From: Verrucomicrobiota bacterium
GTDB taxonomy: Bacteria > Verrucomicrobiota > Verrucomicrobiia > Chthoniobacterales > UBA6821
NCBI GenBank assembly: GCA_008932965.1
Contig: WBXG01000001.1
Span: 25,975-57,974 of the forward strand
DNA length: 32,000 nucleotides
Direction of reading: 5' to 3'
The notes under the pieces are model-generated. The model made no database searches and was not told where the DNA came from. It was given only the letters and a program-made list of their open reading frames with translations. Shown here one piece after another: positions 1-22,119 of the stretch (positions are counted from its first letter, which is position 1; every line of letters starts with the position of its first letter). The translations under genes and the position numbers were made by a program.

Positions 1-153
1 ACCATAAACAACTAAATCCTCGGGGCGTTCTGCGACCTCGGGGTCGAGGTTGTTCATGAGCATTCTTAAGGGAGCTTCTGTTAGCCAACTTTTTGCAGAC
101 AGTGCAGTACCTCGTGAAGCACAAATAACACGAGAAGAATGGTGTGTATTCAT
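1..153 (-). CDS. hutU: Urocanate hydratase, N-terminal fragment (gene continues past the window start)
   Basis: Manual minus-strand translation from the ATG (rc of 151-153) gives [51 protein letters not shown]. This matches the conserved urocanase N-terminus ([22 protein letters not shown]). It is absent from the ORF track because the window edge truncates it. Confidence 0.8.
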
Positions 154-263
154 TTTTATCAATAATTAGAATTTGAGCAATTCTAAGACAGAAAAAGGGA
201 AAAAGGGAATCAGGAAGAATTTTTTTCTTCTTTCAAAAAACTATTTTTATGAACTATTCGGGG

Positions 264-332
264 GGGCTCGGATATTTCGTACTGAAGTGTCATGAGGTGC
301 CCTATAGAGCATTCATCTGACTTTTATAGTCC
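264..332 (-). mobile_element. Truncated, degenerate half copy of the MITE-like repeat, directly abutting copy 333-517
   Basis: GCTCGGATATTTCGTACTGAAGTGTCATGAGGTGCC resembles the reverse complement of the right arm of other copies (ACCCGGATATTTCATACTGAATCGTCATGAGGCGCC, from copy 21726-21912). There is no second terminus. Confidence 0.5.
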
Positions 333-517
333 CTAACCCGGATATTTCACACTAATCTACTGCGGAGGCCGGGAAGCAAGGGTGGATGCTGCGTTAGACT
401 CACATTTTGATTTGGACAGCATGTACACATACAGCCCGGCATCAAAATGCTCGTCTGCCTTACCCCATCAGCCTTCGCGACTTCCTCGTCACGATTAGTA
501 TGAAATATCCGGGCTAA
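333..517 (+). mobile_element. MITE-like palindromic repeat, full copy (subfamily 1), flanked by CTAA/CTAA
   Basis: The termini are CTAACCCGGATATTTCACACTAATC and GATTAGTATGAAATATCCGGGCTAA. It is near-identical to 18832-19016, with about 10 differences by manual alignment. The internal palindrome is CATTTTGAT (403-411) / ATCAAAATG (441-449). Confidence 0.85.
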
Positions 518-1968
518 AGGTAATTTCTATGAAGCCTTGCTTTGAATTTTCTCCATACGATTCGTGCAAGTAATAATCCAAGTAGAGCAAGAGCGATTCG
601 AGTCACCTGCGAGTAGGCAGCATGATAAGTAAAGGCGGTGGCTTTGCTCGTCACCGGATCAACAGTTAATTTTGAAATCCAAATTGATAAATAATTTCCA
701 ATAGCTCCGATAAATAGAAAATAAATCGCTACTAAACGGCCTTCACTATCATGTGGGGCAATATCGCCCCAGGAAGCTAACATCACTGGTTCCGTAAAAA
801 GTTCCGCCACTCCCAGCATTACGATGCTGAGGACAGGAAGCAACATACAAATCGGAGTATGTTCACTAGCTAATCCCGAGGCATAGGTCATTGTTCCAAA
901 ACCGAGTACTAGTAATATCAAGGCAATACTTACTTTGGTATCAGTTTGAGGACGGATATGATGGTGACCCATCCAACGCCATAAAAAAGCCATCACCGCT
1001 CCTGCAATTAAAATACTAGCAGCATTCAGTGATTGAAACATTCCAGCAGGTACGGTGCACCCCATGATAGTACGGTTCACATAGCGGGAAATAAAGAGTG
1101 GATAGGAACTGGAAACTTGATTGCTAAAGATCCAAAAAGAGGTCACGAAAAGGGTGAGCACCGCCATCATGATAAGCCCTTTTTGGTGAGCAGGAGTTGT
1201 ATTTTTATAAATCTTTAAAAAGATAGTAAGGGCCATAATAACAACAATCATCAACAAATAGGCTACCCAGTCATGAAGTAGTATTTCGTAAAAGAAGAGA
1301 AAGGAGGTGAGTAGAATGCCACCTGTTAAAAAAGTTTTTTTAGAAAGTGAAAGATGATCCCATGCTTTTGTTTTCTGTGTCTGTTGCTCCCATTGAAAAT
1401 AGCGCTTAGATAGGAGAAAGATGAAAAATCCTAACATCATCCCAAAAGCAGCTACAATGAACCCCATATCCCAACTGATGTTTTCAACTAAATAAGGACA
1501 GATCATTGCAGCGAGCATGGAGCCAATATTGCCAGCGACGTAGTACCATGAAAAAGCTGCGGTAGCACCAACCGGATCATGATAGTAGCAGGTACTAATA
1601 AGACAAACGGCATTGCTTTTAAAAAAGCCAATTCCCATTGTTAAGAGGGATAAGCCAATAAAAACATTTTGTCCAAATACCGTTAGCATAAGGTGCCCTA
1701 AAATGATTAAAACAGAACCTGTAGCAGTGGCATAACGGTACCCGCAATAACGATCCGCTAACCATCCTCCCAGAATAGGAGTAATAAATACGAGTGAGAT
1801 AAAACTTCCAAACAGTTGATAGGCTGCTGAGTCAGAATAATGGAGCTGGCTCGTAAAATAGAGAACCAGAATAGCTTTTAATCCATAAAAGCTAAAAAAC
1901 TCCCACATGATAACAGCAATAATGCACAAGGCTGCTTTTTGTTGTGTCTTTTTTAATGCTGTTACCAT
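514..1968 (-). CDS. Proton-dependent oligopeptide transporter (POT/PTR2 family, DtpT/DtpA-like)
   Basis: 484-aa polytopic membrane ORF with the PTR2 signature region ILGGWLADRYCGYRY near the N-terminus. Its stop codon (rc of 514-516) lies in the CTAA flank of the MITE copy. Confidence 0.85.
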   Translation of the reverse strand: MVTALKKTQQKAALCIIAVIMWEFFSFYGLKAILVLYFTSQLHYSDSAAYQLFGSFISLVFITPILGGWLADRYCGYRYATATGSVLIILGHLMLTVFGQNVFIGLSLLTMGIGFFKSNAVCLISTCYYHDPVGATAAFSWYYVAGNIGSMLAAMICPYLVENISWDMGFIVAAFGMMLGFFIFLLSKRYFQWEQQTQKTKAWDHLSLSKKTFLTGGILLTSFLFFYEILLHDWVAYLLMIVVIMALTIFLKIYKNTTPAHQKGLIMMAVLTLFVTSFWIFSNQVSSSYPLFISRYVNRTIMGCTVPAGMFQSLNAASILIAGAVMAFLWRWMGHHHIRPQTDTKVSIALILLVLGFGTMTYASGLASEHTPICMLLPVLSIVMLGVAELFTEPVMLASWGDIAPHDSEGRLVAIYFLFIGAIGNYLSIWISKLTVDPVTSKATAFTYHAAYSQVTRIALALLGLLLARIVWRKFKARLHRNYL

Positions 1969-2032
1969 TCAGTGAAAATCTTATTTTAGGGCTCTTTAAT
2001 TGTTAAAAATACTTCTTTAATTCAGAATAGGA

Positions 2033-3436
2033 CTATAAAGCTAGTGTTGATGTCAGTTTTTTCGAACGTTCGTGGAGGGCATAAATGATGAATGGCAATG
2101 CAGAGCTAGAAAGAACACCTATAATCATCGTGCGCTCATATGTTTGGAGGCTACCAACAGCGATTTGACTTGGTGGGAGGAATCCAATACCAATTGTAAA
2201 AATACAACTCAAGGATCCGATAGTGCAGACAGTCCACAATCCGATTTTTCCACCAGGGATGATAAAAGTACGTTTCACTTCAGGGTATTTATAGCGAAGT
2301 TTTACTGCAGAGGCGAACATGGCTACATAAACAAGTAATGCTAAAATTGAAGTAATATTGGTTAATACCCAAAATCCACTCGTGACGGTTGGCATGAATA
2401 AGAAAACAGAGCATAATAGAGTAAAAATACACCCTTGGACAACTAGAATAGTTACCGGAACCCCATGTTTATTTTTATATCCCAATTTTTTTGGCAAGCA
2501 TTCGTCCTGACAAGCTATTAACAGACTTTTGCTAGGTCCTAAAATCCATGCATTAACACCTCCCACAGAACTCAACACAATGAGAAGAGCCAAGACCGGC
2601 ATAAACCAACTCATATGAAAAGAAATAAAGAAAACTTCAAAAGCCTGCATTAAGCCAGAAACAATATTGAGTTGTTTTTGAGGAATGACTAAGGCAACCG
2701 CTAAGGAGGAAAGGATAAGCGAACTTAAAATGATGATCGCTGACCAAAAAATAGCTATAGGATAGTTTTTTTGAGGGTCTGTTACTTCACCGACATGAAC
2801 AGCAGACATCTCAATGCCAACTAGGCTGTAAAGAACAGCTGTTAATAAGACCATATTATCGATGCTACTTAAGTCTGGGAAAAAACTGTGCCAGCTAAAT
2901 TGAATATTTATAGGCTTTCCAAGACACATCCAAACAATTCCTAGAATAATAATAAACATCATAGGAATGAGCACTCCAATAACGGCTGTTAAGGAGCTCA
3001 AGGCACTTGATGCTTTCATTCCAAAGAAATTAATAATAGTGGCTCCCCAGAAAAAAATAAAAACAACCGGCAGAATGTAGAATTTATTATTTACTAAATC
3101 TGGGTTAATACAGTAGGCCAATGTTGCGGCAATAAATGACATAATCGTGGGATACCAACAGAGGTTATAAAACCACTGCATCCATATCGTCATAAACCCG
3201 AATTTTTTACCAAAAGCTTCACGAGCCCAAAGATAGACTCCTCCTGCCTCTGGCCACCCTGTGGCAAGTTCAGCAGAAACTAGTGCTGTGGGAATGAAAA
3301 AAAGCAAGGCGGCAGCTGCATAGTAGAAGACGATGGAAAAACCATACTCTGCACTCATCGGCAGCGATCGAATACTATCGATTGCAATAATATTCATCAT
3401 AACAAGACCAAAGACACTCAGTGATTTTTTATTCAT
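2033..3436 (-). CDS. APC-superfamily amino acid transporter, glutamate:GABA antiporter (GadC)-like
   Basis: 467-aa ORF with about 12 hydrophobic segments. The N-terminal blocks LPMSAEYGFSIVFYY..FIPTALVSAELATGWPEAGGVYLWAREAFGKKFGF resemble GadC-type APC transporters. Confidence 0.75.
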   Translation of the reverse strand: MNKKSLSVFGLVMMNIIAIDSIRSLPMSAEYGFSIVFYYAAAALLFFIPTALVSAELATGWPEAGGVYLWAREAFGKKFGFMTIWMQWFYNLCWYPTIMSFIAATLAYCINPDLVNNKFYILPVVFIFFWGATIINFFGMKASSALSSLTAVIGVLIPMMFIIILGIVWMCLGKPINIQFSWHSFFPDLSSIDNMVLLTAVLYSLVGIEMSAVHVGEVTDPQKNYPIAIFWSAIIILSSLILSSLAVALVIPQKQLNIVSGLMQAFEVFFISFHMSWFMPVLALLIVLSSVGGVNAWILGPSKSLLIACQDECLPKKLGYKNKHGVPVTILVVQGCIFTLLCSVFLFMPTVTSGFWVLTNITSILALLVYVAMFASAVKLRYKYPEVKRTFIIPGGKIGLWTVCTIGSLSCIFTIGIGFLPPSQIAVGSLQTYERTMIIGVLSSSALPFIIYALHERSKKLTSTLAL

Positions 3437-3446
3437 AGACTTTTGA

Positions 3447-5066
3447 TTATTGAACTATGGGTTTTTGTTTTTGACTAAGAAATGGGTAACTAGCTAGAGC
3501 ACTGAGTATTAACACAATTCCAAGAAAAGCTTCAAATGAATTCGTCCATAGAGTGTAGAGAAGTGCCATCATGCTCACAGCTGCAAAAAAAAGTTGAGGG
3601 AGTGGATAAAGTGGGGAACGAAAGATTGTTTCGCGAGTATGTGGGGTATTTTGGGAAATTACATTGTTCAACTCCTCATACTCTTGACACTCGATTTTGA
3701 TATTTTTTTGAGTTAGCCCAGATATTTCATAATGATCTGTTGTGAGGCGCTGTGAATGCTGATCTAGAAATGGAGAGCGATGATCTTCGACAACAATTGT
3801 ATCTTTTATATTACTCGAGGCAAAGTTTGAGCCTAATGCTGTATTCTTCACATTGTTGCAAGCCGCCGCAGGATCAGCATGAAATATGCGGTCTAGCTGC
3901 AAATAGCTTTTATTTTTATGATGAGAGGCTCGAGAAAAAGCACGCCGTCTCAAGACGATAACGCTTAAAACACCTAAGAGTTCGCACAAAATCAATGCAA
4001 ACTGAGTGCTCACTAAAATAGTTTTAAAGGAGGAGGTTAACAGTAATACAATCACTAAGATATATTGAAAAAGAGTAGCACGAAGCGGTATATTATTTGC
4101 AGAAGCACAACTAAACCAACGTAAGACTAAAAGATGTTTTCCCATTGCTTGCATGATTCGTGGACCTGTCCAGGTCATTGCACTAATGCTAGCAATGAGA
4201 CCAAAAGCAATAAGGGCAGACATGGCGCGACCTCCCTGTTGGCCTATAAGATGTGTTGCAACAACACGTCCAATATCTAAAACACCACGTAGTTCATTCT
4301 TAGGTGCGGAGATGAGAAAGATGGCATTCACAAGTAAGTAAACAATCATTACAAAAAGTGATCCAATAATGAGAGAGCGCCCTACGGTGCGTTGTGAGGT
4401 GGTAACATCATCAGCGATATAGGTGGATGCATTCCATCCAGAGTAGGAATAATAACAAAAGAGTAATGTTACTCCCGAAGTCGGCTGAAACAATTCCTGG
4501 AGCGCAAACTTAGTAGGAAGAAGCGTTTTCAAAGGCACTGATGCATACCGCATTCCCAAGTAGCAAATAAAGGCGACCAGCAGGAATTTTAATCCAGTAG
4601 TAATATCTTGAAAACTAGCACTAACCCCTAGGTCAATGAGATGTATTCCAGTTACTAGAGTCACTAACACTATTGAAGAAACCATCGGAGGTACGAAGGG
4701 AAACATCGCTTGAAAATAGGTACCGAATGCCATGCTTGCCAGAGCGATGGGTCCTACACACCCTGCTATTTGTGTGATAATTCCTGCCGCTGTGCCAATG
4801 GCTGGATGATAGATTTTTGTAAAATAATAATATTCACCGCCGGAATGGGGCATTTGTGCAGATAGCTCTGCATATGACAAAGCCCCACAAAGCGCTACAA
4901 GACCACCCAACGCCCATAGCAACAGAAGAGTAAAGCTACTTGAGATAGAAAGCAGCTGGATTCCGAGACTCGTATATATTCCGTTGCCAACCATGGTTGC
5001 GGCAACAAGAAAAACACAAGTAATAAGACCAACTTTGCGAATAGGTTGAGCGGGAGGTGAGGCCAT
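3447..5066 (-). CDS. APC-superfamily amino acid permease carrying an in-frame MITE-derived insertion in the TM10-TM11 loop
   Basis: 539-aa ORF with typical APC blocks (GNGIYTSLG, LCGALSYAELSAQMPHSGGEYYYF). A hydrophilic insert of about 115 aa sits between VLRRR and FRSPLYPLP, where APC permeases normally have a short loop. Sixty-one residues of it (LDRIFHADPAAAC...TTDHYEISGL) are encoded by repeat copy 3713-3896. Confidence 0.75.
   Translation of the reverse strand: MASPPAQPIRKVGLITCVFLVAATMVGNGIYTSLGIQLLSISSSFTLLLLWALGGLVALCGALSYAELSAQMPHSGGEYYYFTKIYHPAIGTAAGIITQIAGCVGPIALASMAFGTYFQAMFPFVPPMVSSIVLVTLVTGIHLIDLGVSASFQDITTGLKFLLVAFICYLGMRYASVPLKTLLPTKFALQELFQPTSGVTLLFCYYSYSGWNASTYIADDVTTSQRTVGRSLIIGSLFVMIVYLLVNAIFLISAPKNELRGVLDIGRVVATHLIGQQGGRAMSALIAFGLIASISAMTWTGPRIMQAMGKHLLVLRWFSCASANNIPLRATLFQYILVIVLLLTSSFKTILVSTQFALILCELLGVLSVIVLRRRAFSRASHHKNKSYLQLDRIFHADPAAACNNVKNTALGSNFASSNIKDTIVVEDHRSPFLDQHSQRLTTDHYEISGLTQKNIKIECQEYEELNNVISQNTPHTRETIFRSPLYPLPQLFFAAVSMMALLYTLWTNSFEAFLGIVLILSALASYPFLSQKQKPIVQ
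3713..3896 (-). mobile_element. MITE-like repeat, old diverged copy inside the permease CDS, open in the gene frame
   Basis: The termini TTAGCCCAGATATTTCATAATGATC and GATCAGCATGAAATATGCGGTCTAG match the family TIR. The interior keeps patches such as GAATGCTGATCTAGA versus GGATGCTGCGTTAGA. There is no stop codon in the permease reading frame. Confidence 0.7.
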
Positions 5067-5084: not shown

Positions 5085-5160
5085 GGGTAATGGGTAAAGT
5101 GTAAAGCGTAAAGGGTAATGGGTAATGGGTAATGGGTAATGGGTAATGGGTAATGGGTGA
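5085..5160. repeat. Heptanucleotide tandem repeat (GGGTAAT)n: six perfect units at 5113-5154 plus degenerate flanking units
   Basis: Read directly from the sequence: GGGTAAT GGGTAAA GTGTAAA GCGTAAA then 6x GGGTAAT then GGGTGA. It lies 19-95 nt upstream of the permease start codon (5066, minus strand), in the divergent region shared with pal. Confidence 0.95.
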
Positions 5161-5257
5161 CGAGTGCTCTCTCTTGCATTCGGTAAAGTTCCATTGCCCT
5201 CTTAAAGAAAAAAATTTTATTTGAAAAAAATTTGAAAACAAAGATCATAGAAGCTCT

Positions 5258-5867: not shown

Positions 5868-5999
5868 CTAGAGCGTCTAAAAAAAGTTAGTGCCGCTTAT
5901 TGCAGAGTCATTCTGGTGCTCACGTCCTCGAGTATCTCGTATACACTGCGGTCTTGGCACTTCGTTGCTAGCACTACAACTTTTTTTAATATGCTCTAG
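5868..5999. repeat. Long imperfect inverted repeat (about 22 bp of outer helix enclosing about 77 nt), bounded by CTAG on both sides
   Basis: CTAGAGC (5868-5874) pairs with GCTCTAG (5993-5999). AAAAAAAGTT (5879-5888) pairs with AACTTTTTTT (5978-5987). AGTGC (5889-5893) pairs with GCACT (5971-5975). It is present only once in this window. Confidence 0.6.
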
Positions 6000-8834: not shown

Positions 8835-9668
8835 ATGCACTTACATGACACTCAAAATCAAAAAGATGATCGTCAACTATCAATCGATCGTGTTGGTGTA
8901 AAAAATTTACGCTACCCGATTGAAATCCGAGATCGTCCTCCAGGAGCAGGTAAGGATGAGGCTCTGAGCAGTCAAAGTACAGTGGCTCTCATTCAGCTTA
9001 CCGTTGACTTGCCCCATCATTTTAAAGGAACACATATGAGTCGTTTTGTTGAGGTGCTCAATTCTCATGGCTCCATTCTCCATGTGCTCAATATTAGGGA
9101 TATTCTAGAACAGCTCCTCGTCAAGCTTGATTCAGAGCAGGCACATGTCGATTTTGAATTTCCTTTTTTTATCAAAAAGGCAGCCCCCGTAACACAAGCA
9201 ACTGCCTTGATTGATTACAATGTCTGCTTTAAAGCAACTTTAACAAAAAAAAATAGAGAAGCTCGAGCAGCTTTTGATTTTGTTGTTACTGTGGTAGTAC
9301 CGGTTACCACGCTCTGCCCTTGTTCCAAAGCCATCAGTCAGTCCGGGGCTCACAATCAACGAGGCCAGGTAACCTTTTCTGTGCGTTGTGCAAGGACGAT
9401 GTGGATTGAGGAGATGATTCGTCTGGTTGAGGATTCTGCAAGCTGCGAGCTTTATACGTTATTAAAACGTCCTGACGAAAAATTTGTGACAGAACATGCT
9501 TATGAAAATCCCGTTTTTGTAGAAGATCTTGTTCGTAATATTGCCCAACGAGCAGAAGCAAATTCCAATATTCTTTGGTACCGTATTGAAGCAGAAAATT
9601 TCGAATCTATTCACAATCACAATGCTTATGCCTTAATCGAGAAAAAAGGAGCAAGGCCTCATTCCTAA
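8835..9668 (+). CDS. folE2: GTP cyclohydrolase IB (FolE2/MptA family)
   Basis: The blocks are LSIDRVGVKNLRYPIEI, LCPCSKAISQSGAHNQRG and ESIHNHNAYA, as I remember them for COG1469 FolE2. The stop TAA (9666-9668) is the left flank of a MITE copy. Confidence 0.8.
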   Translation: MHLHDTQNQKDDRQLSIDRVGVKNLRYPIEIRDRPPGAGKDEALSSQSTVALIQLTVDLPHHFKGTHMSRFVEVLNSHGSILHVLNIRDILEQLLVKLDSEQAHVDFEFPFFIKKAAPVTQATALIDYNVCFKATLTKKNREARAAFDFVVTVVVPVTTLCPCSKAISQSGAHNQRGQVTFSVRCARTMWIEEMIRLVEDSASCELYTLLKRPDEKFVTEHAYENPVFVEDLVRNIAQRAEANSNILWYRIEAENFESIHNHNAYALIEKKGARPHS

Positions 9669-9825
9669 CCCAGAGATTTCTTGCTAATCGTCATGAGGAG
9701 GCCGCGAAGGCTGATAGAGCAAGGCTGTGTGAGAACATACTGCCCGAGGAAAACTTCGAGATCAACGCAGTAATGAGGAGCTTTCCACAAGCCGTAATAG
9801 ATTTAGTATGAAATATGCGGGTTAA
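9666..9825 (-). mobile_element. MITE-like repeat (subfamily 2, inverted relative to 21726-21912) filling the folE2-lptD convergent gap exactly
   Basis: The right part CTTCGAGATCAACGCAGTAATGAGGAGCTTTCCACAAGCCGTAATAGATTTAGTATGAAATATGCGGGTTAA is nearly identical to the reverse complement of the left arm of 21726-21912. The left terminus is degenerate (TAACCCAGAGATTTCTTGCTAATCG). Confidence 0.8.
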
Positions 9826-12347
9826 TTTCCAGGAATGAGTGGATTAGCACTAGAACCAGGAGAGGGATTAGCAGTAGGTGCATTGAGATGAAATGGCATT
9901 GTCACATCGGGTGCATCCTTGAGCGTGCAGACAATAACAGCACCATACTGGGTAAGGTTTCCTTGAGTCGAGGTTCCTTGGTTATTACGCACATCAGCAC
10001 CTAAAGAAACGATCCAGCTTGATAGATCTCGATTAATTAAATAGCGCTGATAGAGCAAGCTATTACCTGGGGCATATCCACTTGATGTCGTGCTAGTGGA
10101 GGTAGCGGATTCATTTAAGTTATAAAGTTGTGTAGCGCTCAGAGACCAGTGATCCGTCAATTTCCATTGAACAGAAACGGAGGGCTGGTTGCCACTGATG
10201 CCGTTGTAATTATTGATATAGGCACTTCCGACACATACCTGCAACCAGCGGGCTGGCATAATATCAAATTGCAGGTTCATTTCTGTAAAGCCTTGAGATG
10301 TCGTTGGCACCTGCGAATCAAGGCGAAGAGCTAGCCAACTAATCGGATTAAAAGTAAAACGATTATTAAAATTAGAAACAGAACCATTACGGTATGGGTC
10401 AACTCCATTGATATCGATGAAACTGTCAATATAAAACCAGTCATGGGTCCCTTCATCACGACGAGTTTGTAAACGGTTTCGAATACCCAGACGCATGATC
10501 GTCCATGTGTCGATTGTGTCAATTGCCGCAAACTGAGGAAAATTGAGTGGCTGCAGTTGGGTTGAACTTGGTTGATAGCCTGACTTGGTAAGATTATTAG
10601 CTCCATTAGGAATATAACGATCAAATTGAAAAACCTGGTTGACATTGGGCCCCCCCGCGTAAACGTACGAGAGGTTGCCATAGGGCTGGAAGACATGTCT
10701 TAATCCATCAAGTCCAAGAAGACGTGATTGCACTCCTTCAAAGTTACGAGAAATTTTAAAAGAGCCCTCTATCCCAGCATTAAAAATGGGACGGACTGTT
10801 GTTCCTGTCCAATTGAGATTATTAGCATGCGTGCTTGTGATCACACCATTAGTGGCGATTGGAGTGTTGGGGAAGGTGGTGATAGCCCCATTGGTGTTGA
10901 GAAAATCTCCACCATGATTGTAAGCAGTAACCCGCATTCCAATTTTAGGGATAAGTGAAAGCCATCCAAAGAGCGTTTGAGGTAGGCTTAATTGATGGAA
11001 TGTATCAAATCGGGTCGCATTATAACTAGAGGGTGTTTGGTAGTTAGGGTAATTTGTGGAGTTGATGGCAAAACTACGTTGTAATTGACCGATGGATGTC
11101 GTTCCATCGTAAAATAGAGGAAGTCCAAAGAGCGGCTCCTGATTAAAATCAAAGGCCAACTCAGGAAGTCGCTCTGTTGTTTCTTGAAAATTATTCATCT
11201 GCCACCGTGTTACTAGCGATATGGTGGAGTCATCATTCCTCTTGGTCAGTGTAATATTGTTGTCTGGTTGGGGGTTGTAGGCATTTTCAACAGGATAGTA
11301 ATTTTGCATGAACGTAAAATCGCTCAGCTTTGTTAAATCAGCCGTCGCATAAAGATCATCCTTGAGATAAAATTTTTGAGTGAAGGTGAGGCGATAACGT
11401 TGCTCAAAATTCCCCGAGGTAGGATTAACAATTCTTTGTTGGCCAGGTGCATTGTTGATGTTGGGATTGGCATCCCAAGCATAATAGGAGATAAACTGTC
11501 CGGTGTTTCGATCATTTTTACCAAATTTATCCTCTACATCTAATCCCATTGCATATCCACGAAGGGAGCGGTAGTCCGAATGAACTCGTGTGAGTAGATG
11601 ATCATCATTGCCGATGGCATACATGTAGGAGGAGAGGAGGTAGCCACCCCAAGTTGAATCATATCCAGGCTGAATCTGAATTCCCGATTGCTTGAGACTT
11701 GCGTACATATAAGGAACCCAAATGATAGGGACTTTTCCTACATAGATGGTCGTATTTAAAAAAATGACCCTATCCTTATTGTAGATACGCATGGCACGGG
11801 ATCGAATTCCCCAATCAGGACTTGAAGAGTCTGAGGTGGTCATGAAAGCATCACGCGCTCTAAATTCTTTTTGAGAAACGGAATTAAAACTTAAGGCACG
11901 GAATTTGAGTGGAGCAAAGTCCCCAGCGAATTCAAGACCACGAATTTGCTTTGTTTCCAGATTATAAAGGGCACGCTCTCCTGAAAAAAAGTTGGTATTG
12001 TTGTAAATACGGACATGTCCAATGAGCAAGATGTCACGTGTTTCTGGGTTATATTCTGCCCTGTCACAATAAATACTAATGCCGTTGTAATGGATTTGAA
12101 CATTTTCCTCGGCAAAGGCTACTCCGTTTTCAAAATGAGTATTTCCATCGGCAGTAATCTCCACGGCTTTGCCACTGAAGTTATTAGTCGGTGCCACCTC
12201 GGAACTCAACGGGGTGCTCACAAGAGCTTGCTGCATCGGATCTGCAGGTGCCTCTTGGGCAACTAATGGAACTCCCATGTTAATAGCACCAATGAAAAAA
12301 ATCATTTTCAGATGCCGTAATGGAGGAGTGAAAGTAAAGTTGGGCAC
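9822..12347 (-). CDS. lptD: LPS-assembly outer membrane protein LptD (OstA family)
   Basis: 841 aa with an N-terminal signal-like segment. It has an OstA-like N-domain (VEITADGNTHFENGVAFAEENVQIHYNGISIYCDRAEYNPETRDILLIGHVRIY) and a long C-terminus rich in aromatics and Gly, consistent with a beta-barrel. Confidence 0.7.
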   Translation of the reverse strand: MPNFTFTPPLRHLKMIFFIGAINMGVPLVAQEAPADPMQQALVSTPLSSEVAPTNNFSGKAVEITADGNTHFENGVAFAEENVQIHYNGISIYCDRAEYNPETRDILLIGHVRIYNNTNFFSGERALYNLETKQIRGLEFAGDFAPLKFRALSFNSVSQKEFRARDAFMTTSDSSSPDWGIRSRAMRIYNKDRVIFLNTTIYVGKVPIIWVPYMYASLKQSGIQIQPGYDSTWGGYLLSSYMYAIGNDDHLLTRVHSDYRSLRGYAMGLDVEDKFGKNDRNTGQFISYYAWDANPNINNAPGQQRIVNPTSGNFEQRYRLTFTQKFYLKDDLYATADLTKLSDFTFMQNYYPVENAYNPQPDNNITLTKRNDDSTISLVTRWQMNNFQETTERLPELAFDFNQEPLFGLPLFYDGTTSIGQLQRSFAINSTNYPNYQTPSSYNATRFDTFHQLSLPQTLFGWLSLIPKIGMRVTAYNHGGDFLNTNGAITTFPNTPIATNGVITSTHANNLNWTGTTVRPIFNAGIEGSFKISRNFEGVQSRLLGLDGLRHVFQPYGNLSYVYAGGPNVNQVFQFDRYIPNGANNLTKSGYQPSSTQLQPLNFPQFAAIDTIDTWTIMRLGIRNRLQTRRDEGTHDWFYIDSFIDINGVDPYRNGSVSNFNNRFTFNPISWLALRLDSQVPTTSQGFTEMNLQFDIMPARWLQVCVGSAYINNYNGISGNQPSVSVQWKLTDHWSLSATQLYNLNESATSTSTTSSGYAPGNSLLYQRYLINRDLSSWIVSLGADVRNNQGTSTQGNLTQYGAVIVCTLKDAPDVTMPFHLNAPTANPSPGSSANPLIPGN

Positions 12348-13064: not shown

Positions 13065-13129
13065 GGTATGGACTGCTTAACAGTAGTTGAAGTGAAAGTT
13101 TTGAAAAGGGATGGAAAAAAGTGAAAATA

Positions 13130-13957
13130 TTACCCAAAACGACCCGTGATGTAATCTTCTGTCTGTTTTTCAATAGGGGCAGTAAAGATTCTGTTAGTGT
13201 GATCAAACTCAATTAATTTTCCAAAATTAAAAAAGGCTGTTAGGTCAGAAACGCGGCTCGCCTGTTGCATGCTGTGGGTCACAATGATGATGGTGAATTC
13301 CTTTTTTAACTCCACAATGAGCTCTTCTATTTTAGCTGTGGCAATAGGATCCAGTGCAGAGCAAGGTTCATCCATAAGCAGAATATCTGGCTGACCTGCA
13401 ATAGCGCGAGCAATACAGAGGCGTTGCATTTGTCCTCCTGAGAGACCTAAGGCATTTTCTCCTAAACGATCCTTCACTTCATCCCACAAGGCAACCGAAC
13501 GGAGGGAGCGTTCAACCGTCTCGTTCAAATGAGCTCGTTTGTGACACCCCATAATACGAAGTGGAAAAACAACATTTTCATAGATCGAGCGAGGGAAAGG
13601 ATTTGATTTTTGAAAGACCATCCCAATGCGTCGTCGTAGGGCAATGATTTCAATAGATGCATCAAAGATACTTCTTCCCTCAATGGTAATGTCACCTTCA
13701 TGGCGTACCCCAGGAAGCAGTTCATTCATACGATTGAAATTGCGTAAGAGTGTTGATTTACCAGAACCTGAGGGCCCAATAAAAGAGGTTACATGCTTGG
13801 AGGGAATAGCAAAATTGATATTAAAGAGGGTCTGTTTTTTTCCATAGAAAAAATCAAAATTGATGACTTTAATAAAAGTCTCATTAGTGACACCGGAAGG
13901 TGTCACCTTCGAAGATGAAGGAAGTAGCTCCGTACTATTGATGCTGGTTGGGTTCAT
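13130..13957 (-). CDS. pstB: Phosphate ABC transporter ATP-binding protein PstB
   Basis: Walker A is GPSGSGKST, the ABC signature is LSGGQMQR, and Walker B is ILLMDEP. It overlaps pstA by 4 nt. Confidence 0.92.
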
Positions 13958-14844
13958 TGAAATTTTCTACGGAAGAGTAGTTGAGCTAAAATATTTGTTC
14001 CAGTTACCATGGCAACTAGGACAAGAGAGGCAGTCCAAGCCATTTGAACTTGGTAATGATAAGGAAGTGCTGAGAAATTATAAATTAAAACCGAAAGAGA
14101 AGCCGTTGGCTCCATGATGGAGCTTGCCCATTGTTGACTAAAGAGAGCGGTAAAAAGAACAGGTGCCGTTTCTCCCGCAGCACGAGCGACCGCAAGCATC
14201 ATTCCCATCATCATTGCTGGTAATGCCTCAGGTAAAACGATACGCCAGATTGTTTGAAAGGGAGTCGCCCCAAGTCCATAGGAAGCATCACGGTAGGAAG
14301 AAGGGACCCCCATCAGTGCCTGCTCCGAGGTTAAAAGAATGGTTGGCAACATTAAAATAGAAAGAGCAGCTCCTCCTGCTAAAGCCGAAAATTGCCCTGT
14401 ATGGAGAACGACTAAGGCAAAAGCAAAAGCACCACAAATAATAGAGGGGATTCCAGTAAGGAGTTTGGCAATGAAGCGAACTGTTGCTGTCAGAGAGGAG
14501 TGAGGGGCATATTCACTAATATAAATGGCACCTAAAATTCCAATAGGAGCTGAAAGCAGGGTAGCAATACCAACCATCGTTATGGTTCCAATTATAGCAT
14601 TGCCAAAACCACCACCGTGTAACCCAGGTGGTGGTGGGAGTTTTGTAAAGACTGAAAAATGCAATAAAGGAAGACCTTTATGAATCAGCAAATAAAGAAG
14701 AGAAAAAAGAGGAACTAAGGTGAAAAAAGAAAAAAGAACACACAGTGTTGTAAGGAGTTGATTGCTCCAGAGACGCAGGAAAGAGGTTTTTTTCTCATGG
14801 TTGGAGAAAAAATGGTGAGGTGGATTTGAATGGGGTATCATCAT
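13954..14844 (-). CDS. pstA: Phosphate ABC transporter permease PstA
   Basis: 296-aa polytopic ORF with the EAA-type loop [19 protein letters not shown]. It overlaps pstC by 4 nt. Confidence 0.85.
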
Positions 14845-16969: not shown

Positions 16970-17944
16970 ATGCTTGTCATTGGCAAGCTCCTGCTGCTAG
17001 TGGAGACGATGTCGATCAAAAATGTTGATCCCTTTAAAATGTTGACCCCTTTTTTTAGCATTATTACCCCTTCCTACAATCAAGGGAAATATCTCTCTGG
17101 ATGTCTGGATTCGATTCGACGTCAGACTAACGGCTCCTACGAACATATCGTGATCGATAATTGTTCTACCGATGAAACAAAAAACATTCTTGTGAATTAT
17201 GCACAAGATCCCAGAGTAAGGCTCCTTGTTGAATCAGATCATGGTCAGTCGAATGCCGTTAACAAAGGCTTTCGGATGGCTCGCGGCGAGGTTATTTGTT
17301 GGCTCAATAGCGATGATGCTTATTTTCCAGAGACCCTTGAAAAGCTGTATCATGCCTTCAAAAATCCTGCCTCTCAGGTGATTTTTGGAGATGTTCTTCA
17401 AGTTTCCTACAATGGGGAGCCTCCTCTCCGAGCAGCTGCACAATTCAAAGATCGTCGAGATTTTATTCGATGGTGGAGTGGTCGTATTAGGCTCCATCAG
17501 CCAGCTGTTTTTTTTCGAAGCTCGGTGCGTGAGAGAATTGGCTTTTTAAAGGAAGATCTCCATTATGCAATGGATTATGAATATTGGTGGCATATGTCAG
17601 AGTTCTATCATTTTCATTATTTAGGTGAGGAGCTTGCTATTCAACATCGACAACCCGATTCTAAGACGATCCAGGCGTGGTATTTAGTTCTTGAGGAACG
17701 GGAAAAGATTTTTTCTCCCTTTTATCCTCTGCTTGAGGAAAAAAAATCGGTCCTTGATCATGAACGCTCTGATTCGCTTGCGCATCATTTTTTAATACAA
17801 GCCTACGCGGTGGTGCAAAAGGATCGCCATCAGGCTTGGTTCTATTTTAGTAAAGCATTACGCTATGCTCCGTTGATATTTTTAAAGCCCTCCGCATTCG
17901 GATTGATCCGCCAATTATTTTTTTATGACCGGGATTCTTCTTAG
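16970..17944 (+). CDS. Family 2 glycosyltransferase (start uncertain: ATG at 16970, 17009 or 17039)
   Basis: The GT2 N-terminal blocks are FSIITPSYNQGKYLSGCLDSIRRQT, HIVIDNCSTDET and WLNSDD. The ATG at 17039 (MLTPFFSIITPSYN) fits the usual GT2 N-terminus best. Confidence 0.8.
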   Translation: MLVIGKLLLLVETMSIKNVDPFKMLTPFFSIITPSYNQGKYLSGCLDSIRRQTNGSYEHIVIDNCSTDETKNILVNYAQDPRVRLLVESDHGQSNAVNKGFRMARGEVICWLNSDDAYFPETLEKLYHAFKNPASQVIFGDVLQVSYNGEPPLRAAAQFKDRRDFIRWWSGRIRLHQPAVFFRSSVRERIGFLKEDLHYAMDYEYWWHMSEFYHFHYLGEELAIQHRQPDSKTIQAWYLVLEEREKIFSPFYPLLEEKKSVLDHERSDSLAHHFLIQAYAVVQKDRHQAWFYFSKALRYAPLIFLKPSAFGLIRQLFFYDRDSS

Positions 17945-18854
17945 TACTTTTGAGCCTTATGAACAAGTAGCCCATTTTACGGAGCAGCGGATCAAAAAAC
18001 ATTGGGCAGCACATCCTCCCCTTTTTTTTTCTGGTTTAGTGCGTGATCAGGATCTTTATTTCAATTTTAAAAGTGATTCACGAAATTGGATGGGAGTGAC
18101 CTTAGAGGCGGTCGAAGAAATGCTCTATCGTCGATTTACCCATGTATATTTAATCCTTGATGATCATCCTCCAGTAGGAGCGTGTGATGATATTTTTTTA
18201 AATGAGACCTTGCCCGCTCTTGCAGTAAAACTCGATGCCGTCACTATAGGACTTCTCGGTTATGGGCAGCATCGAGACCCTCACGGAGTCATTCTAGAGA
18301 AAGAAAATGGCTTCCTAGAACAATGTTCTTCGACAGCTCCATGGAAGTTTTCACTGCATCCTGGGTTGTGGAAGCTTGAAGCATTGCAACTCATTTTAGA
18401 AGAACGACTGAATCAATATGGTGAGGGGAAACGAACTGCATGGAATTTTGAGCGTCATCAGGATCAGCCTGAGGATCCCATTTTAAAAACTCTGTTACAT
18501 CGATGCTTTCGTATTTCTGGAGAACATTTTTTAAAAGAACCCAAAAAAATGAAGTTTGAAATAATAAAAGAGGGTATCGAGCGTTTTGGAGTTGATCTAA
18601 TGCTCTATCTAACAAAAAAAAGGGGAGGTGCTCCAGCTCGCCTGGAGCTAGAAAAAAAAGAGTTGTGGCGTTATGGTCACTACTTAGGTCCTTATCCTAT
18701 TTTTTGGAGCGGTCTCATGCAACAAGGAAGACCCCATAGGGGGTTTGAAAGGTGGCTTTTATCTTGCGGAAATCGAGAGCTTCAAAAGGAATGGAAAAAT
18801 TTAAAATCTCTTTTGGAGTCAAATTCATCTCTTAACCCGGATATTTCACACTAA
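17925..18854 (+). CDS. Hypothetical protein, overlapping the GT2 gene by 20 nt; its last 7 codons and stop are encoded by a MITE copy
   Basis: 309-aa ORF with protein-like composition and no motif that I can assign firmly. LILDDHPP could be a DXD-like motif. The C-terminus ...SSLNPDISH* is read from TTAACCCGGATATTTCACACTAA. Confidence 0.55.
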   Translation: MTGILLSTFEPYEQVAHFTEQRIKKHWAAHPPLFFSGLVRDQDLYFNFKSDSRNWMGVTLEAVEEMLYRRFTHVYLILDDHPPVGACDDIFLNETLPALAVKLDAVTIGLLGYGQHRDPHGVILEKENGFLEQCSSTAPWKFSLHPGLWKLEALQLILEERLNQYGEGKRTAWNFERHQDQPEDPILKTLLHRCFRISGEHFLKEPKKMKFEIIKEGIERFGVDLMLYLTKKRGGAPARLELEKKELWRYGHYLGPYPIFWSGLMQQGRPHRGFERWLLSCGNRELQKEWKNLKSLLESNSSLNPDISH

Positions 18855-19016
18855 TCTACTGCGGAGGCCGGAAAGCAAGGATGGATGCTGCGTTAGACTC
18901 ACATTTTGATTTGGACAGTATGTACACATACAGCCCGGCATCAAAATGCTCGTCTGCCTTACCCCATCAGCCTTCGCGGTCTCCTCGTCACGATCAGTAT
19001 GAAATATGCGGGTTAA
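18832..19016 (+). mobile_element. MITE-like repeat, full copy (subfamily 1), flanked by TTAA/TTAA
   Basis: The termini are TTAACCCGGATATTTCACACTAATC and GATCAGTATGAAATATGCGGGTTAA. It is near-identical to 333-517. Confidence 0.9.
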
Positions 19017-19115
19017 AGCCAGGGCAGTCTCCCCCGCGGTCTCCCGACCGCCGGTGGTGTCTGCATCAGGATTCGCGGCGCCTCGCGACGAATCAGTATG
19101 AAATATGCGGGTTAA
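19017..19115 (+). mobile_element. Half copy of the MITE-like repeat (right arm only, GC-rich left part), in tandem with the preceding copy
   Basis: It ends in CGCGACGAATCAGTATGAAATATGCGGGTTAA, which matches the family right arm. It has no left TIR. Confidence 0.65.
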
Positions 19116-21676: not shown

Positions 21677-22119
21677 ATGAATGTGAAAACTACATTAGAA
21701 CTTCCAGCTCCACTTCTTCATCAGGTTAACCCGGATATTTCACACTAAATCTATTACGGCTTGTGGAAAGCTCCTCATTACTGTGTTGGTCTCGAATTGT
21801 GATTTGGGCGGTATGTACTCATACAGCCCGGCATCACAATCCTTCGCCCGCCTTGTACTAATAAGCTTTGCACGGCGCCTCATGACGATTCAGTATGAAA
21901 TATCCGGGTTAAGACTGCGGCGTTGCAGTGTCATACGACCATGAAAGAATTTTTTGTGAGGCCTTGAAAGAAAAATTAGCTAGAACTTCACGAGTTAATA
22001 CTGTGCGACATCGAACTGTCATTCCTCCACCTCCAAAGATTCCACGCAAGGAGCTCGAAGCCATTAAAAGAAAAATTTTAGATGCTGCTGCTGAAATTCA
22101 TCCTGACGATTGGAAATGA
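21677..22119 (+). pseudogene. vapB: VapB-type antitoxin gene split by a MITE insertion and carrying a 1-nt frameshift in a T6 run; a C-terminal 63-codon ORF (21928-22119, GTG start) remains
   Basis: The N-terminal piece MNVKTTLELPAPLLHQV runs into the repeat and stops (..NPDISH*). Removing 21726-21912 minus one TTAA (183 nt) joins it in frame to KTAALQCHTTMKEFF. Adding one T to the run at 21950-21955 continues into CEALKEKLARTS...DDWK*. The stop overlaps the vapC ATG (ATGA). Confidence 0.55.
21726..21912 (+). mobile_element. MITE-like repeat, full copy (subfamily 2), flanked by TTAA/TTAA, inserted in vapB
   Basis: The termini are TTAACCCGGATATTTCACACTAAATC and GATTCAGTATGAAATATCCGGGTTAA. It shares the core ATGTACTCATACAGCCCGGCATCACAAT with subfamily 1. 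Confidence 0.9.

Follow-up and report, generated by a model that had tools for sequence, protein, structure and literature searches.

Palindromic repeats that are translated in frame as part of a protein are best known from Rickettsia, where they have been seen as an oddity of intracellular bacteria with reduced genomes. Summaries in PMC10969869 and PMC1779305 of the work of Ogata et al. (2000 Science) describe these Rickettsia palindromic elements (RPEs) as repeats that lie both between genes and, in frame, within unrelated housekeeping genes. QMITE1 and QMITE2 of Coxiella burnetii are MITEs that extend over the ends of genes, to which they contribute a stop codon or C-terminal residues; in occasional cases they sit in frame within ORFs, the mid-ORF cases being in hypothetical proteins (PMC5896051). 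Intragenic repeats of the ERIC/BOX type, in enterobacteria and pneumococci, likewise carry ORFs, according to Delihas (2007) as cited in PMC10969869.

Described here is an amino-acid permease gene that reads through a MITE, within a 32,000-nucleotide stretch (termed the window) of a Verrucomicrobia metagenome-assembled genome (MAG). The repeat family involved (termed family 1) and the RPEs are both short (100-180 bp) and palindromic, each family specifies a conserved peptide, the inserts are apparently tolerated, and PheT is a host protein in both cases (PMC1779305). Unlike RPEs, family 1 has clear TIRs, a 4-bp Y-TA-R target duplication and a phase rule by which the target YTA is a Leu codon; it is translatable in both orientations and frequently lands on stop codons; and its host is not an obligate intracellular alpha-proteobacterium but a member of the Verrucomicrobiota, order Chthoniobacterales, sampled from environmental metagenomes. 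It seems best classed as RPE-like rather than as an RPE, in view of this host. The parallel with RPEs had been drawn in a first-pass annotation of the window, and it is borne out by in-frame palindromic copies with a conserved peptide in the permease, PheT, PyrF, RnpA and other proteins. Family 1 resembles the QMITEs in its overlap with gene ends, but it occupies well-defined genes (permease, PheT, PyrF, RnpA) and keeps one frame systematically open in both orientations; identity with the Coxiella QMITEs, which GC content and the permeases had suggested, was considered and rejected, as homologues and a TIR scan assign the window to Verrucomicrobiota/Chthoniobacterales. With ERIC/BOX-type repeats it shares small size, mobility, open frames and an occasional location inside genes, but not sequence, host or structure. 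A literature search on MITEs in Verrucomicrobia gave nothing relevant; the RPE-like system is new to Verrucomicrobia, though of an already known kind.

Positions 3713-3896 of the window (Table 1) are a full-length, diverged copy of a 182-nt MITE family (176-nt core plus 4-bp Y-TA-R duplication), both ends of which match the family TIR (TAACCCGGATATTTCAYACT and its complement). An nhmmer profile built from only the five intergenic copies of the window aligns from profile position 2 to 182 with the minus strand at 3894..3714 (E=2.8e-12, 40.5 bits), and the permease ORF runs through this full-length match in frame, as had been proposed. The 61-residue peptide quoted in the first-pass annotation (residues 391-451) is also correct, with 60 codons constituting the insertion proper and the leading Leu being the target codon; and the terminal tetranucleotides it pointed out (TTAG at 3713-3716, CTAG at 3893-3896) coincide exactly with the 4-bp target-site duplication, one copy at each end. 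They are not, as was suggested there, ends that avoid stops: a consensus TTAA would leave the same phase just as open. The gene frame is indeed the only one without stops across the copy (0, versus 1-5 in each of the five other frames). Taking this open frame as a sign of selection, however, proved unfounded: the subfamily consensus is already open in the gene frame, so that the absence of stops by itself is no evidence of selection, and 33-38% of trajectories remain open when the observed 47-53 substitutions are simulated under neutrality.

Table 1. Coordinates of the permease locus and of repeat copies in the window (position 1 is the first nucleotide of the window).
Feature	Coordinates	Strand	Remarks
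APC-superfamily amino-acid permease gene	3447..5066	-	539 aa; ORF list, Pfam AA_permease_2/AA_permease
TM11-TM12 segment downstream of insert	3450..3623	-	strong purifying selection; AF2 helices 489-508, 510-532
Loop extension downstream of insert, residues 452-481	3624..3713	-	orthologue alignment
Downstream target-duplication copy	3713..3716	-	CTAA on gene strand; CTA = Leu451
60 inserted codons, residues 392-451 (DRIFHADP...HYEISGL)	3714..3893	-	gap versus empty-site orthologues
MITE core, 176 nt, family 1 'PheT-type' subfamily B	3717..3892	-	same orientation as gene; nhmmer full-length match
Upstream target-duplication copy (gene orientation)	3893..3896	-	CTAG on gene strand; CTA = Leu391
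Loop extension upstream of insert, residues 376-391	3894..3941	-	common to empty-site orthologues, absent from ~443-aa relatives
Family-1 copy, intergenic	334..516	+	terminal CTA = stop codon (TAG, minus strand) of PTR2/MFS gene 514..1968(-)
Second MITE family copy, TIR CTAGAGCGTCTAAAAAAAGTT...	5868..5999	+	family also inside same permease loop in two other lineages
Family-1 copy, 159 nt, internally deleted	9666..9824	-	between two convergent genes; both stop codons = its terminal TAA
Family-1 copy	18833..19015	+	overlaps last 22 nt of ORF 17925..18854
Subfamily B copy, truncated	19058..19114	+	96.5% identical to subfamily consensus
Family-1 copy, intergenic, 185 nt	21727..21911	+	open in translatable frame
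Family-1 copy	31720..31901	+	starts on TAG stop codon of ORF 30358..31722

An empty site is preserved in the syntenic permease orthologue L001/P0002, which has a single CTA (GAG-CTA-CTT in L001) where the window has CTAG-[176 nt]-CTAA; the gap in the orthologue alignment coincides exactly with the TIR-bounded element, and the insert is absent also from P0126, a second lineage. With these empty sites the insertion survives the refuting check set in the first-pass annotation. In L001 the site, CTAC, falls short of a perfect YTAR and lies between diverged flanks. It forms the one clean empty/filled pair obtained; for a second candidate (L002 5195-5378 versus L001), the sequence at the L001 position is unrelated. 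The filled structure recurs in five independent metagenome assemblies (L002-L006), and is therefore not an assembly artefact; the insert is found in 6/6 assemblies of this lineage. (All sequences compared are metagenome assemblies.) The orthologue alignment further reveals that the loop was already extended before the MITE arrived. An older insertion, as put forward in the first-pass annotation, may lie behind this 45-residue extension, for which no MITE ancestry could be detected: nhmmer --max against both families gave at best 2.6 bits, and blastn found no other copy.

Across the fetched loci family 1 comprises 194 non-overlapping copies, 90 of them full length, with a modal length of 182 nt (3n+2); the window itself holds 6-7. 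The element has TIRs beginning CCCGGATATTTCAYACT..., ends CCCGGATATTTCA and no transposase, and with its small size, many copies, target duplication and empty site it has the attributes of a MITE. In a per-copy test of 67 copies, the bases at -1 match in 57 (33 expected, p<5e-5) and those at +1 in 52 (41 expected, p=2e-4), and no signal is seen at the ±2 bases. The duplication thus extends one base to each side of the TA, giving 4 bp, which rules out a simple TA duplication and an IS630/Tc1-mariner origin. In either orientation the consensus reads L-T-R-I-F-H...Y-E-I-S-G-L, and no copy has more than a single open frame per orientation. Of the copies with a 3n+2 length, 77% are open in the forward orientation and 40% in both, versus 18% and 1.4% when the interiors are shuffled.

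In related genomes, in-frame family-1 copies, with peptides running LTRIFHTD...YEISGL, occur in PheT, PyrF, RnpA, a PMT glycosyltransferase, a PD-(D/E)XK nuclease and two large ORFs. Pfam domains flank the element on both sides in PheT; PyrF, RnpA, the PMT glycosyltransferase and the PD-(D/E)XK nuclease have a Pfam match on a single side, and an ORF that stays open for 60 codons or more in either direction from the element. Often, too, a stop codon is the precise landing site of a copy. In two other lineages the same permease loop has been invaded, independently, by a second MITE family; counting both families, this loop has been entered three times. The loops of P0032 and P0019 have in common a 30-38-nt 3' segment, with weak matches elsewhere, and match neither MITE profile.

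The protein sequence of the permease is identical to NCBI KAB2645003.1 (from a Verrucomicrobia MAG) in the protein collection searched. Its membership in the APC superfamily is evident from residues 13-377, which match Pfam AA_permease_2 (PF13520; E=3e-38), and from homology on either side of the insert to BasC (PDB 6f2g), its best solved relative, which aligns to residues 10-374 and 479-533, that is, to TM1-10 and TM11-12. The AF2 model has 12 main helices, with 489-508 and 510-532 as TM11-TM12. At the TM10-TM11 junction, which the BasC alignment flanks on both sides, BasC, one of the LAT-type APC transporters (PDB 6f2g, 9h76), differs from the permease: BasC has about 5 residues there and close relatives about 12, whereas the permease has ~105 (residues 376-481), 60 of them MITE-encoded. 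The first-pass annotation was therefore right about the position and excess length of this loop, though its size is ~105 rather than 115 residues. APC/LAT transporters have an established N-in/C-in topology with 12 TM helices; together with the BasC alignment and the Arg/Lys-rich start of the loop (VLRRRAFSRASHHKNK), this suggests that the loop is cytoplasmic. Model confidence is low throughout it (pLDDT 24-45 for the inserted residues and below 50 across residues 385-480), and the MITE-encoded insert is predicted to be disordered.

Selection differs sharply along the gene. Between two filled alleles the permease core has an omega of 0.12 (3N:8S), and versus L001 an omega of 0.09; across the 55 codons of TM11-12, downstream of the insert, omega versus L001 is 0.056 (dN 0.028, dS 0.51). 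Near neutrality is seen in the loop extension (dN 0.51, dS 0.79, omega 0.64), and the insert has a dN/dS of ~1.2 versus a 98% strain, a ratio that rests on five substitutions (4N:1S); the contrast between loop and core substitutions has a Fisher p of 0.05. The comparison of rates that had been proposed as a check therefore finds the core of the gene constrained and the insert drifting. What really speaks for read-through is not the open frame but the omega of TM11-12, together with the preserved 3n length; selection on the downstream segment argues that the insert is translated through, and the insert is probably neutral for transporter function.

With members of subfamily B the in-gene copy shares 72-73% identity, and from their consensus it differs by 47 mismatches (74% identity). 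Versus the intergenic copies of the window it is only 61-65% identical, the latter being 64-95% identical among themselves, so that the higher divergence previously ascribed to it is real, but partly reflects a difference of subfamily (72-73% identity within its own, 64% with its neighbours). Long residence, which that divergence had been taken to indicate, nevertheless holds: the truncated same-subfamily copy at 19058-19114 has kept 96.5% identity to the consensus, and hence the in-gene copy is old despite the subfamily effect. Its JC distance to the subfamily consensus is ~0.32, and the permease dS to L001 is 0.71, or ~0.36 per lineage. The in-gene copy has a predicted RNA MFE of -40.2 kcal/mol (z=-1.1), ranking 74th of 75 copies, versus a family median of -71 kcal/mol.

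Very probably, then, this is a MITE inserted in frame into a permease loop, with the gene functional and translated through an insert that is drifting. Under this explanation, after the split of the window lineage from that of L001/P0002, a non-autonomous MITE (176-nt core) would have entered a Y-TA-R target within the permease gene; with 4 bp of target duplicated on entry, the gene would have grown by exactly 180 nt. With the target YTA being an in-phase Leu codon, and the element lacking stops in that phase in either orientation, the gene would have gained 60 codons (Leu-[T/D]RIFH...YEISG-Leu) and kept its frame. The landing site would have been the TM10-TM11 loop, a short cytoplasmic one in this LeuT-fold transporter, and additional residues, probably disordered, may be tolerated there. 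The gene would have remained functional thereafter, while near-neutral drift would have cost the insert ~26% of its identity to the subfamily consensus as well as its long RNA hairpin.

That the MITE-derived residues, alone or together with the 45-residue extension, have instead become a functional cytoplasmic module for regulation or interaction is improbable. Such exaptation could account for an insert that has stayed open and 3n through ~26% divergence and that is present in every assembly of its lineage, and for the independent gain of MITE-derived sequence by the same loop in other lineages; yet omega, 0.09-0.12 in the core, rises to 0.64 in the extension and to ~1.2 in the insert, the region is predicted to be disordered, an open frame is expected in a third or so of neutral trajectories (see above), and close relatives work with a 12-residue loop. 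Given that the absence of stops alone is not significant, the ORF might also be open merely by chance in a pseudogene, or in a gene no longer translated past the element, with the C-terminal helices not made. We consider this very unlikely: the dN of an untranslated segment should approach the ~0.3 seen in the element, whereas that of TM11-12 is 0.028 at a dS of 0.51, synonymous changes predominate in the core between filled alleles, and no net frameshift has accumulated after 26% divergence.

Less credible still is removal of the element after transcription or translation--by intron- or intein-like excision or by ribosomal bypass of the hairpin--to yield a mature protein lacking the 60 residues. 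Young copies, those within essential genes included, do form very stable hairpins (-65 to -92 kcal/mol), but the old in-gene copy has lost its hairpin; no Rfam family, introns included, matches the window at the gathering threshold; 60 residues without intein motifs are too small for an intein; and only copies in the single open phase span long ORFs, a restriction that would be needless if the element were removed. Finally, the early extension of the loop might prompt the reverse view, with no transposition involved: an ancestral loop would have given rise to the repeats, or deletion would have produced the empty alleles. Against this, which we regard as the least plausible of all, stand the 194 copies found in several genomes, most of them outside permeases, with their TIRs and 4-bp duplications seen copy by copy, and the exact coincidence of the orthologue gap with the TIR-bounded element.

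Returning to the MITE insertion, a candidate for its parent transposon is found outside the host lineage. The 20-nt terminus of family 1 adjoins transposases of the PF13701 (DDE_Tnp_1_4) type in L027 (a Verrucomicrobia MAG) and L084 (a Gemmataceae MAG), and L057 is a weak further case. The L027 element is ~1.76 kb long, its second IR is imperfect and its flanks are CTAA/CTAG; one of the PF13701 elements with the shared terminus is degraded, and these elements belong to other PVC-group MAGs. Isolated TIR matches in other phyla had been put down entirely to chance (with 18 bases specified, we estimate that ~70 would arise in 596 Gb), a view partly revised now that two or three adjoin PF13701 transposases. 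The IS1380 family is characterized by short (4-5 bp) duplications and CC ends. Its member IS1247 is 1672 bp long, with imperfect 16/13 IRs and a 5-bp duplication (PMC3281130). The MITE shares its 20-nt terminus with the PF13701 elements of L027 and L084, but has no transposase, and no such IS was detected in the host lineage's contigs: no autonomous IS with MITE ends was found in the Chthoniobacterales fragments examined, and a search of the loci for TIR pairs 400-4000 bp apart found only an 860-bp pair, in L083. These shared termini suggest mobilisation in trans by an IS1380-type (PF13701) transposase. An IS5-type parent is a possible alternative, as IS5-type elements also target YTAR.

The permease is a clean, datable example, in another phylum, of a phenomenon associated with Rickettsia, one in which selection can be measured and both the empty site and the target duplication are seen. 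More generally, the family may have been shaped by selection between lineages of the element to be harmless in gene-dense genomes--a second, independent origin of 'protein-coding selfish DNA' like that of the RPEs, probably mobilised by IS1380--although this is a tentative reading, of which we are slightly more doubtful than convinced. If it is true, Y-TA-R targeting would direct the element either onto stop codons, which the duplication regenerates, or into in-phase Leu codons, where either orientation is read through without meeting a stop; and the element would repeatedly supply new loop sequence to essential proteins in environmental Verrucomicrobia. The family-wide rule by which such insertions can do no harm (a Y-TA-R target, the Leu-codon phase and a frame open in both orientations) allows one to test how often mobile DNA seeds new protein loops and linkers. 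It also flags problems in the annotation of MAGs: long loops that lack an explanation, C-termini encoded by MITEs, and repeats that provide the stop codons of genes.

Family 1, a family of 182-nt MITEs, has a full-length copy inside the first of two tandem APC permease genes, where, as the first-pass annotation had proposed, it is read through in frame. That interpretation is supported here by the empty site, selection downstream of the insert and other in-frame copies, with corrections of detail given below. Both ends of 3713-3897 match family 1 by repeat finding, and a profile HMM constructed only from the five intergenic window copies matches the gene at 3894..3714 (minus strand; profile positions 2-182; E=2.8e-12). 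The observation itself is thus real: the copy is diverged but full length, has the same orientation as the permease, and is stop-free, among the six frames, in the gene frame only.

Comparison with a set of 1238 permease homologues locates the insertion precisely. Close relatives (~80% identity) are ~443 aa in length, with a TM10-TM11 loop of ~12 residues. The homologues P0002/P0124 (annotated as 533 aa owing to an over-extended start; true length 477 aa) are encoded on a contig syntenic with the window (OmpA-like, permease, permease, PTR2, then hut genes); they possess the loop extension--that is, the residues flanking the insert--and lack exactly the 60 residues 392-451, which are likewise absent from P0126. 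The corresponding DNA is ...GCAG-CTAG-[176 nt]-CTAA-CTC... at the filled site and ...AGAG-CTA-CTT... at the empty one. Besides the window, five independent assemblies have the filled allele; their gene differs by 18 nt from the window's. The absence of the insert from orthologues, a check that the first-pass annotation proposed, is confirmed. Because family-1 copies occur elsewhere in the empty-site genome (L001 2861-3043 and 14512-14712), this is not a MITE-free relative; its site is merely unoccupied. The latter copy overlaps the L001 PTR2 gene (13089-14543) at its 3' end.

Repeat copies and the host gene in the window
Feature	Position	Strand	Remarks
Permease ORF	3447..5066	minus	539 aa
Family-1 copy	334-516		intergenic; one end on PTR2 stop codon (514-516)
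Family-1 copy	9666-9824		intergenic; between convergent genes 8835..9668 (+) and 9822..12347 (-)
Family-1 copy	18833-19015		covers last 22 nt of ORF 17925..18854
Family-1 copy	21727-21911		intergenic
Family-1 copy	31720-31901		begins on stop codon of ORF 30358..31722
Truncated family-1 copy	near 19058-19114		from repeat finding
Second MITE family copy	5868-5999		~132-145 nt family, unrelated to family 1; own TIRs CTAGAGCGTCTAAAAAAAGTT / AACTTTTTTTAATATGCTCTAG

By repeat finding, the window has a family of ~183-nt elements; an nhmmer search of the fetched loci yielded 194 non-overlapping copies (90 full length), and a terminus scan of reference genomes found the family to be abundant in Chthoniobacterales/'Spartobacteria' MAGs (Kiruna_bin-02438, Tobar2m-G38, Deming_bin.170, SMAG_U8253). 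The modal length, including both terminal TAs, is 182 nt (42/83 copies). The base preceding the 5' TA equals that preceding the 3' TA in 57/67 copies (33 expected; p<5e-5) and the base following TA is identical at both ends in 52/67 (41 expected; p=2e-4), while positions ±2 around TA show no correlation between ends in these 67 copies. This implies a 4-bp target duplication, Y-TA-R, and therefore a core of 176 nt and an addition of 180 nt, or 60 codons, per insertion. The terminal tetranucleotides TTAG/CTAG, earlier described as avoiding in-frame stops, are indeed present; the per-copy test identifies them as Y-TA-R target duplications. Several copies adjoin one another through a common TTAA (e.g., flanks 'GTTAacccg' in L016 and L090). 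Copies are also present on contigs assigned by binning to Phycisphaerales and Burkholderiales (L046 6589-6766; L088 1687-1980), which could reflect mis-binning or horizontal spread; those in L088 adjoin an IS4-type transposase (PF01609 + Nterm_IS4).

Read in the phase that makes the target YTA a Leu codon, the TIR encodes L-T-R-I-F-H-T-D on entering and Y-E-I-S-G-L on leaving the element--in both orientations, because the termini are inverted repeats--and the remaining two phases meet TAA or TGA inside the TIR. Among 83 copies, this 'YTA' frame is open in 44 forward and 32 in reverse, as against 0-3 for the other frames. For copies of length 3n+2, it is open in 40/52 forward, 30/52 reverse and 21/52 in both orientations; shuffled-interior controls are open in 18% (forward) and 1.4% (both), an excess indicating that family 1 is intrinsically translatable. 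Long ORFs, with ≥60 codons on either side of the element, span eight independent copies, of which five share one orientation and three have the opposite one. Besides the permease, the hosts recognized by Pfam are PheT (whose tRNA_bind and B3_4 domains flank the element), OMP decarboxylase, RNase P protein, a PMT-type glycosyltransferase and a PD-(D/E)XK nuclease; two large unannotated ORFs are also hosts. Within rnpA of a Kiruna MAG (L063 28-651), a partial copy is followed by a full in-frame copy (...HQASQPPRHDQHEICG-LTRIFHTD...), making ~1.3 tandem copies.

Landing on a stop codon is a second safe outcome, because Y-TA-R contains TAA/TAG: in 17 of ~81 copies, one end coincides exactly with the stop codon of an ORF that is ≥100 codons long. 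Within the window, this is so for 334-516, 31720-31901 and 9666-9824; in the last case, both convergent neighbours have their stop codons in the element's terminal TAA, and the L001 counterpart of the upstream gene has a TAG stop and then different sequence. Given its overlap with ORF 17925..18854, copy 18833-19015 encodes the last few residues of that protein.

The host protein is identical to KAB2645003.1 ('APC family permease', Verrucomicrobia MAG), and its residues 13-377 match AA_permease_2 (Pfam; E=3e-38). The best solved relative is BasC (6f2g/9h76), a bacterial LAT homologue, to which residues 10-374 and 479-533 align; only ~5 BasC residues lie between these blocks, so that the permease is ~105 residues longer precisely at the TM10-TM11 junction. 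In an AlphaFold2 model based on 24 homologues, the 12 main helices are present as expected, and pLDDT is <50 across residues 385-480. APC transporters have an established N-in/C-in topology, from which the loop is predicted to be cytoplasmic. Downstream of the tandem permeases are a PTR2/MFS transporter and then hutU-hutH-arginase/formiminoglutamase-hutI homologues (window 1-5066; filled-allele loci L003-L006), a gene order that suggests a cluster for the uptake and catabolism of histidine or amino acids. Between the divergently oriented permease and OmpA-like genes lies a heptanucleotide tandem repeat, (GGGTAAT)n (window 5085-5165; TTACCC motif counts: window 8, L002 10, L004 17, L001 4), which could be a variable promoter-spacing repeat and through which some gene callers translate, creating spurious 'THYPLPI' N-terminal extensions (P0002, P0123, P0125).

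The in-gene copy is, as first described, much more diverged than the intergenic copies (61-65% identity to those in the window), but it is closer (72-73%) to a distinct subfamily that includes the PheT copy, whose members are ~95% alike and whose 182-nt consensus is open in both orientations. The truncated copy at 19058-19114, of the same subfamily, is 96.5% identical to this consensus; across that stretch the in-gene copy reaches 75% and is therefore old, in keeping with the long residence originally proposed. Its 47 mismatches to the consensus (JC ~0.32) and a dS of 0.71 to the empty-site orthologue (~0.36 per lineage) are consistent with insertion soon after the split from the empty-site lineage and near-neutral drift since. 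A long hairpin is typical of family-1 copies, including young ones within genes (median -71 kcal/mol, z -4 to -10); for the permease copy the folding energy is -40.2 kcal/mol (z=-1.1, rank 74/75).

The first-pass annotation had also taken the lack of stops as a sign of selection for an open frame. This argument fails: the consensus is already open and, in simulations, 33-38% of random trajectories from it with 47-53 substitutions stay open, so that a stop-free frame does not by itself demonstrate selection. Continued translation through the element is indicated, rather, by selection on TM11-12 downstream of it (dN=0.028, dS=0.51, omega 0.056) and on the permease core (omega 0.09-0.12), and by an insert length kept at 3n. 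Between two filled alleles the insert itself shows 4N:1S (omega ~1.2; 5 substitutions). For the 45-residue extension, dN=0.51 and dS=0.79 relative to L001 (loop versus core, Fisher p=0.05). The extension, which the first-pass annotation suggested could be an older insertion, predates the insert and evolves nearly neutrally; it has no similarity to either MITE family or to anything else in the fetched loci.

Long TM10-TM11 loops also occur in more distant homologues. The second MITE family has 17 matches in the fetched loci, including the TM10-TM11 loops of homologues P0028 and P0012: a profile built only from non-permease copies matches the P0028 loop DNA over its full length (L094 11147-11287, E=1.3e-24) and that of P0012 in part (L093 11139-11226, E=2.7e-8). 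Independent insertions by two MITE families have thus reached this loop, in three lineages. The loop inserts of P0032 (L095 2113-2322) and P0019 (L096 1661-1840) match neither MITE profile; they share a 30-38-nt 3' segment (89-97% identity), have weak matches at L035 1372-1409, L050 6519-6556 and L093 3261-3315, and may represent a third repeat family.

The MITE contains no transposase, and a search of the loci found no long TIR pair in the host lineage. In two MAGs, one of Verrucomicrobia and one of Gemmataceae, an identical 20-nt terminus adjoins PF13701 (DDE_Tnp_1_4) transposase genes (a third case is weak), which points to an IS1380-type parent. An IS5-type parent may be an alternative; IS5-type elements also use a YTAR target. 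In the Verrucomicrobia MAG (L027) the element spans ~1.76 kb, its second IR is imperfect and its flanks are CTAA/CTAG; in the Gemmataceae MAG (L084) the terminus is just upstream of the transposase start. By comparison, IS1247 measures 1672 bp, has imperfect IRs and makes a 5-bp duplication (PMC3281130).

In-frame intragenic MITEs are already documented. RPEs in Rickettsia include 44 insertions in R. conorii genes, encode conserved peptides and, as RPE-7, have entered PheT (PMC10969869, PMC1779305), as has family 1 here; QMITEs in Coxiella contribute stop codons and C-termini and occasionally lie in frame in mid-ORF (PMC5896051); and ERIC and BOX elements, too, occur within genes (PMC10969869). 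A full-text literature search found nothing on MITEs in Verrucomicrobia, and no Rfam family matches the window. Hence the permease case belongs to a known phenomenon; its new aspects are the phylum, an explicit rule of phase and target, the capacity to be translated in either orientation, stop-codon landing and the repeated colonisation of one transporter loop.
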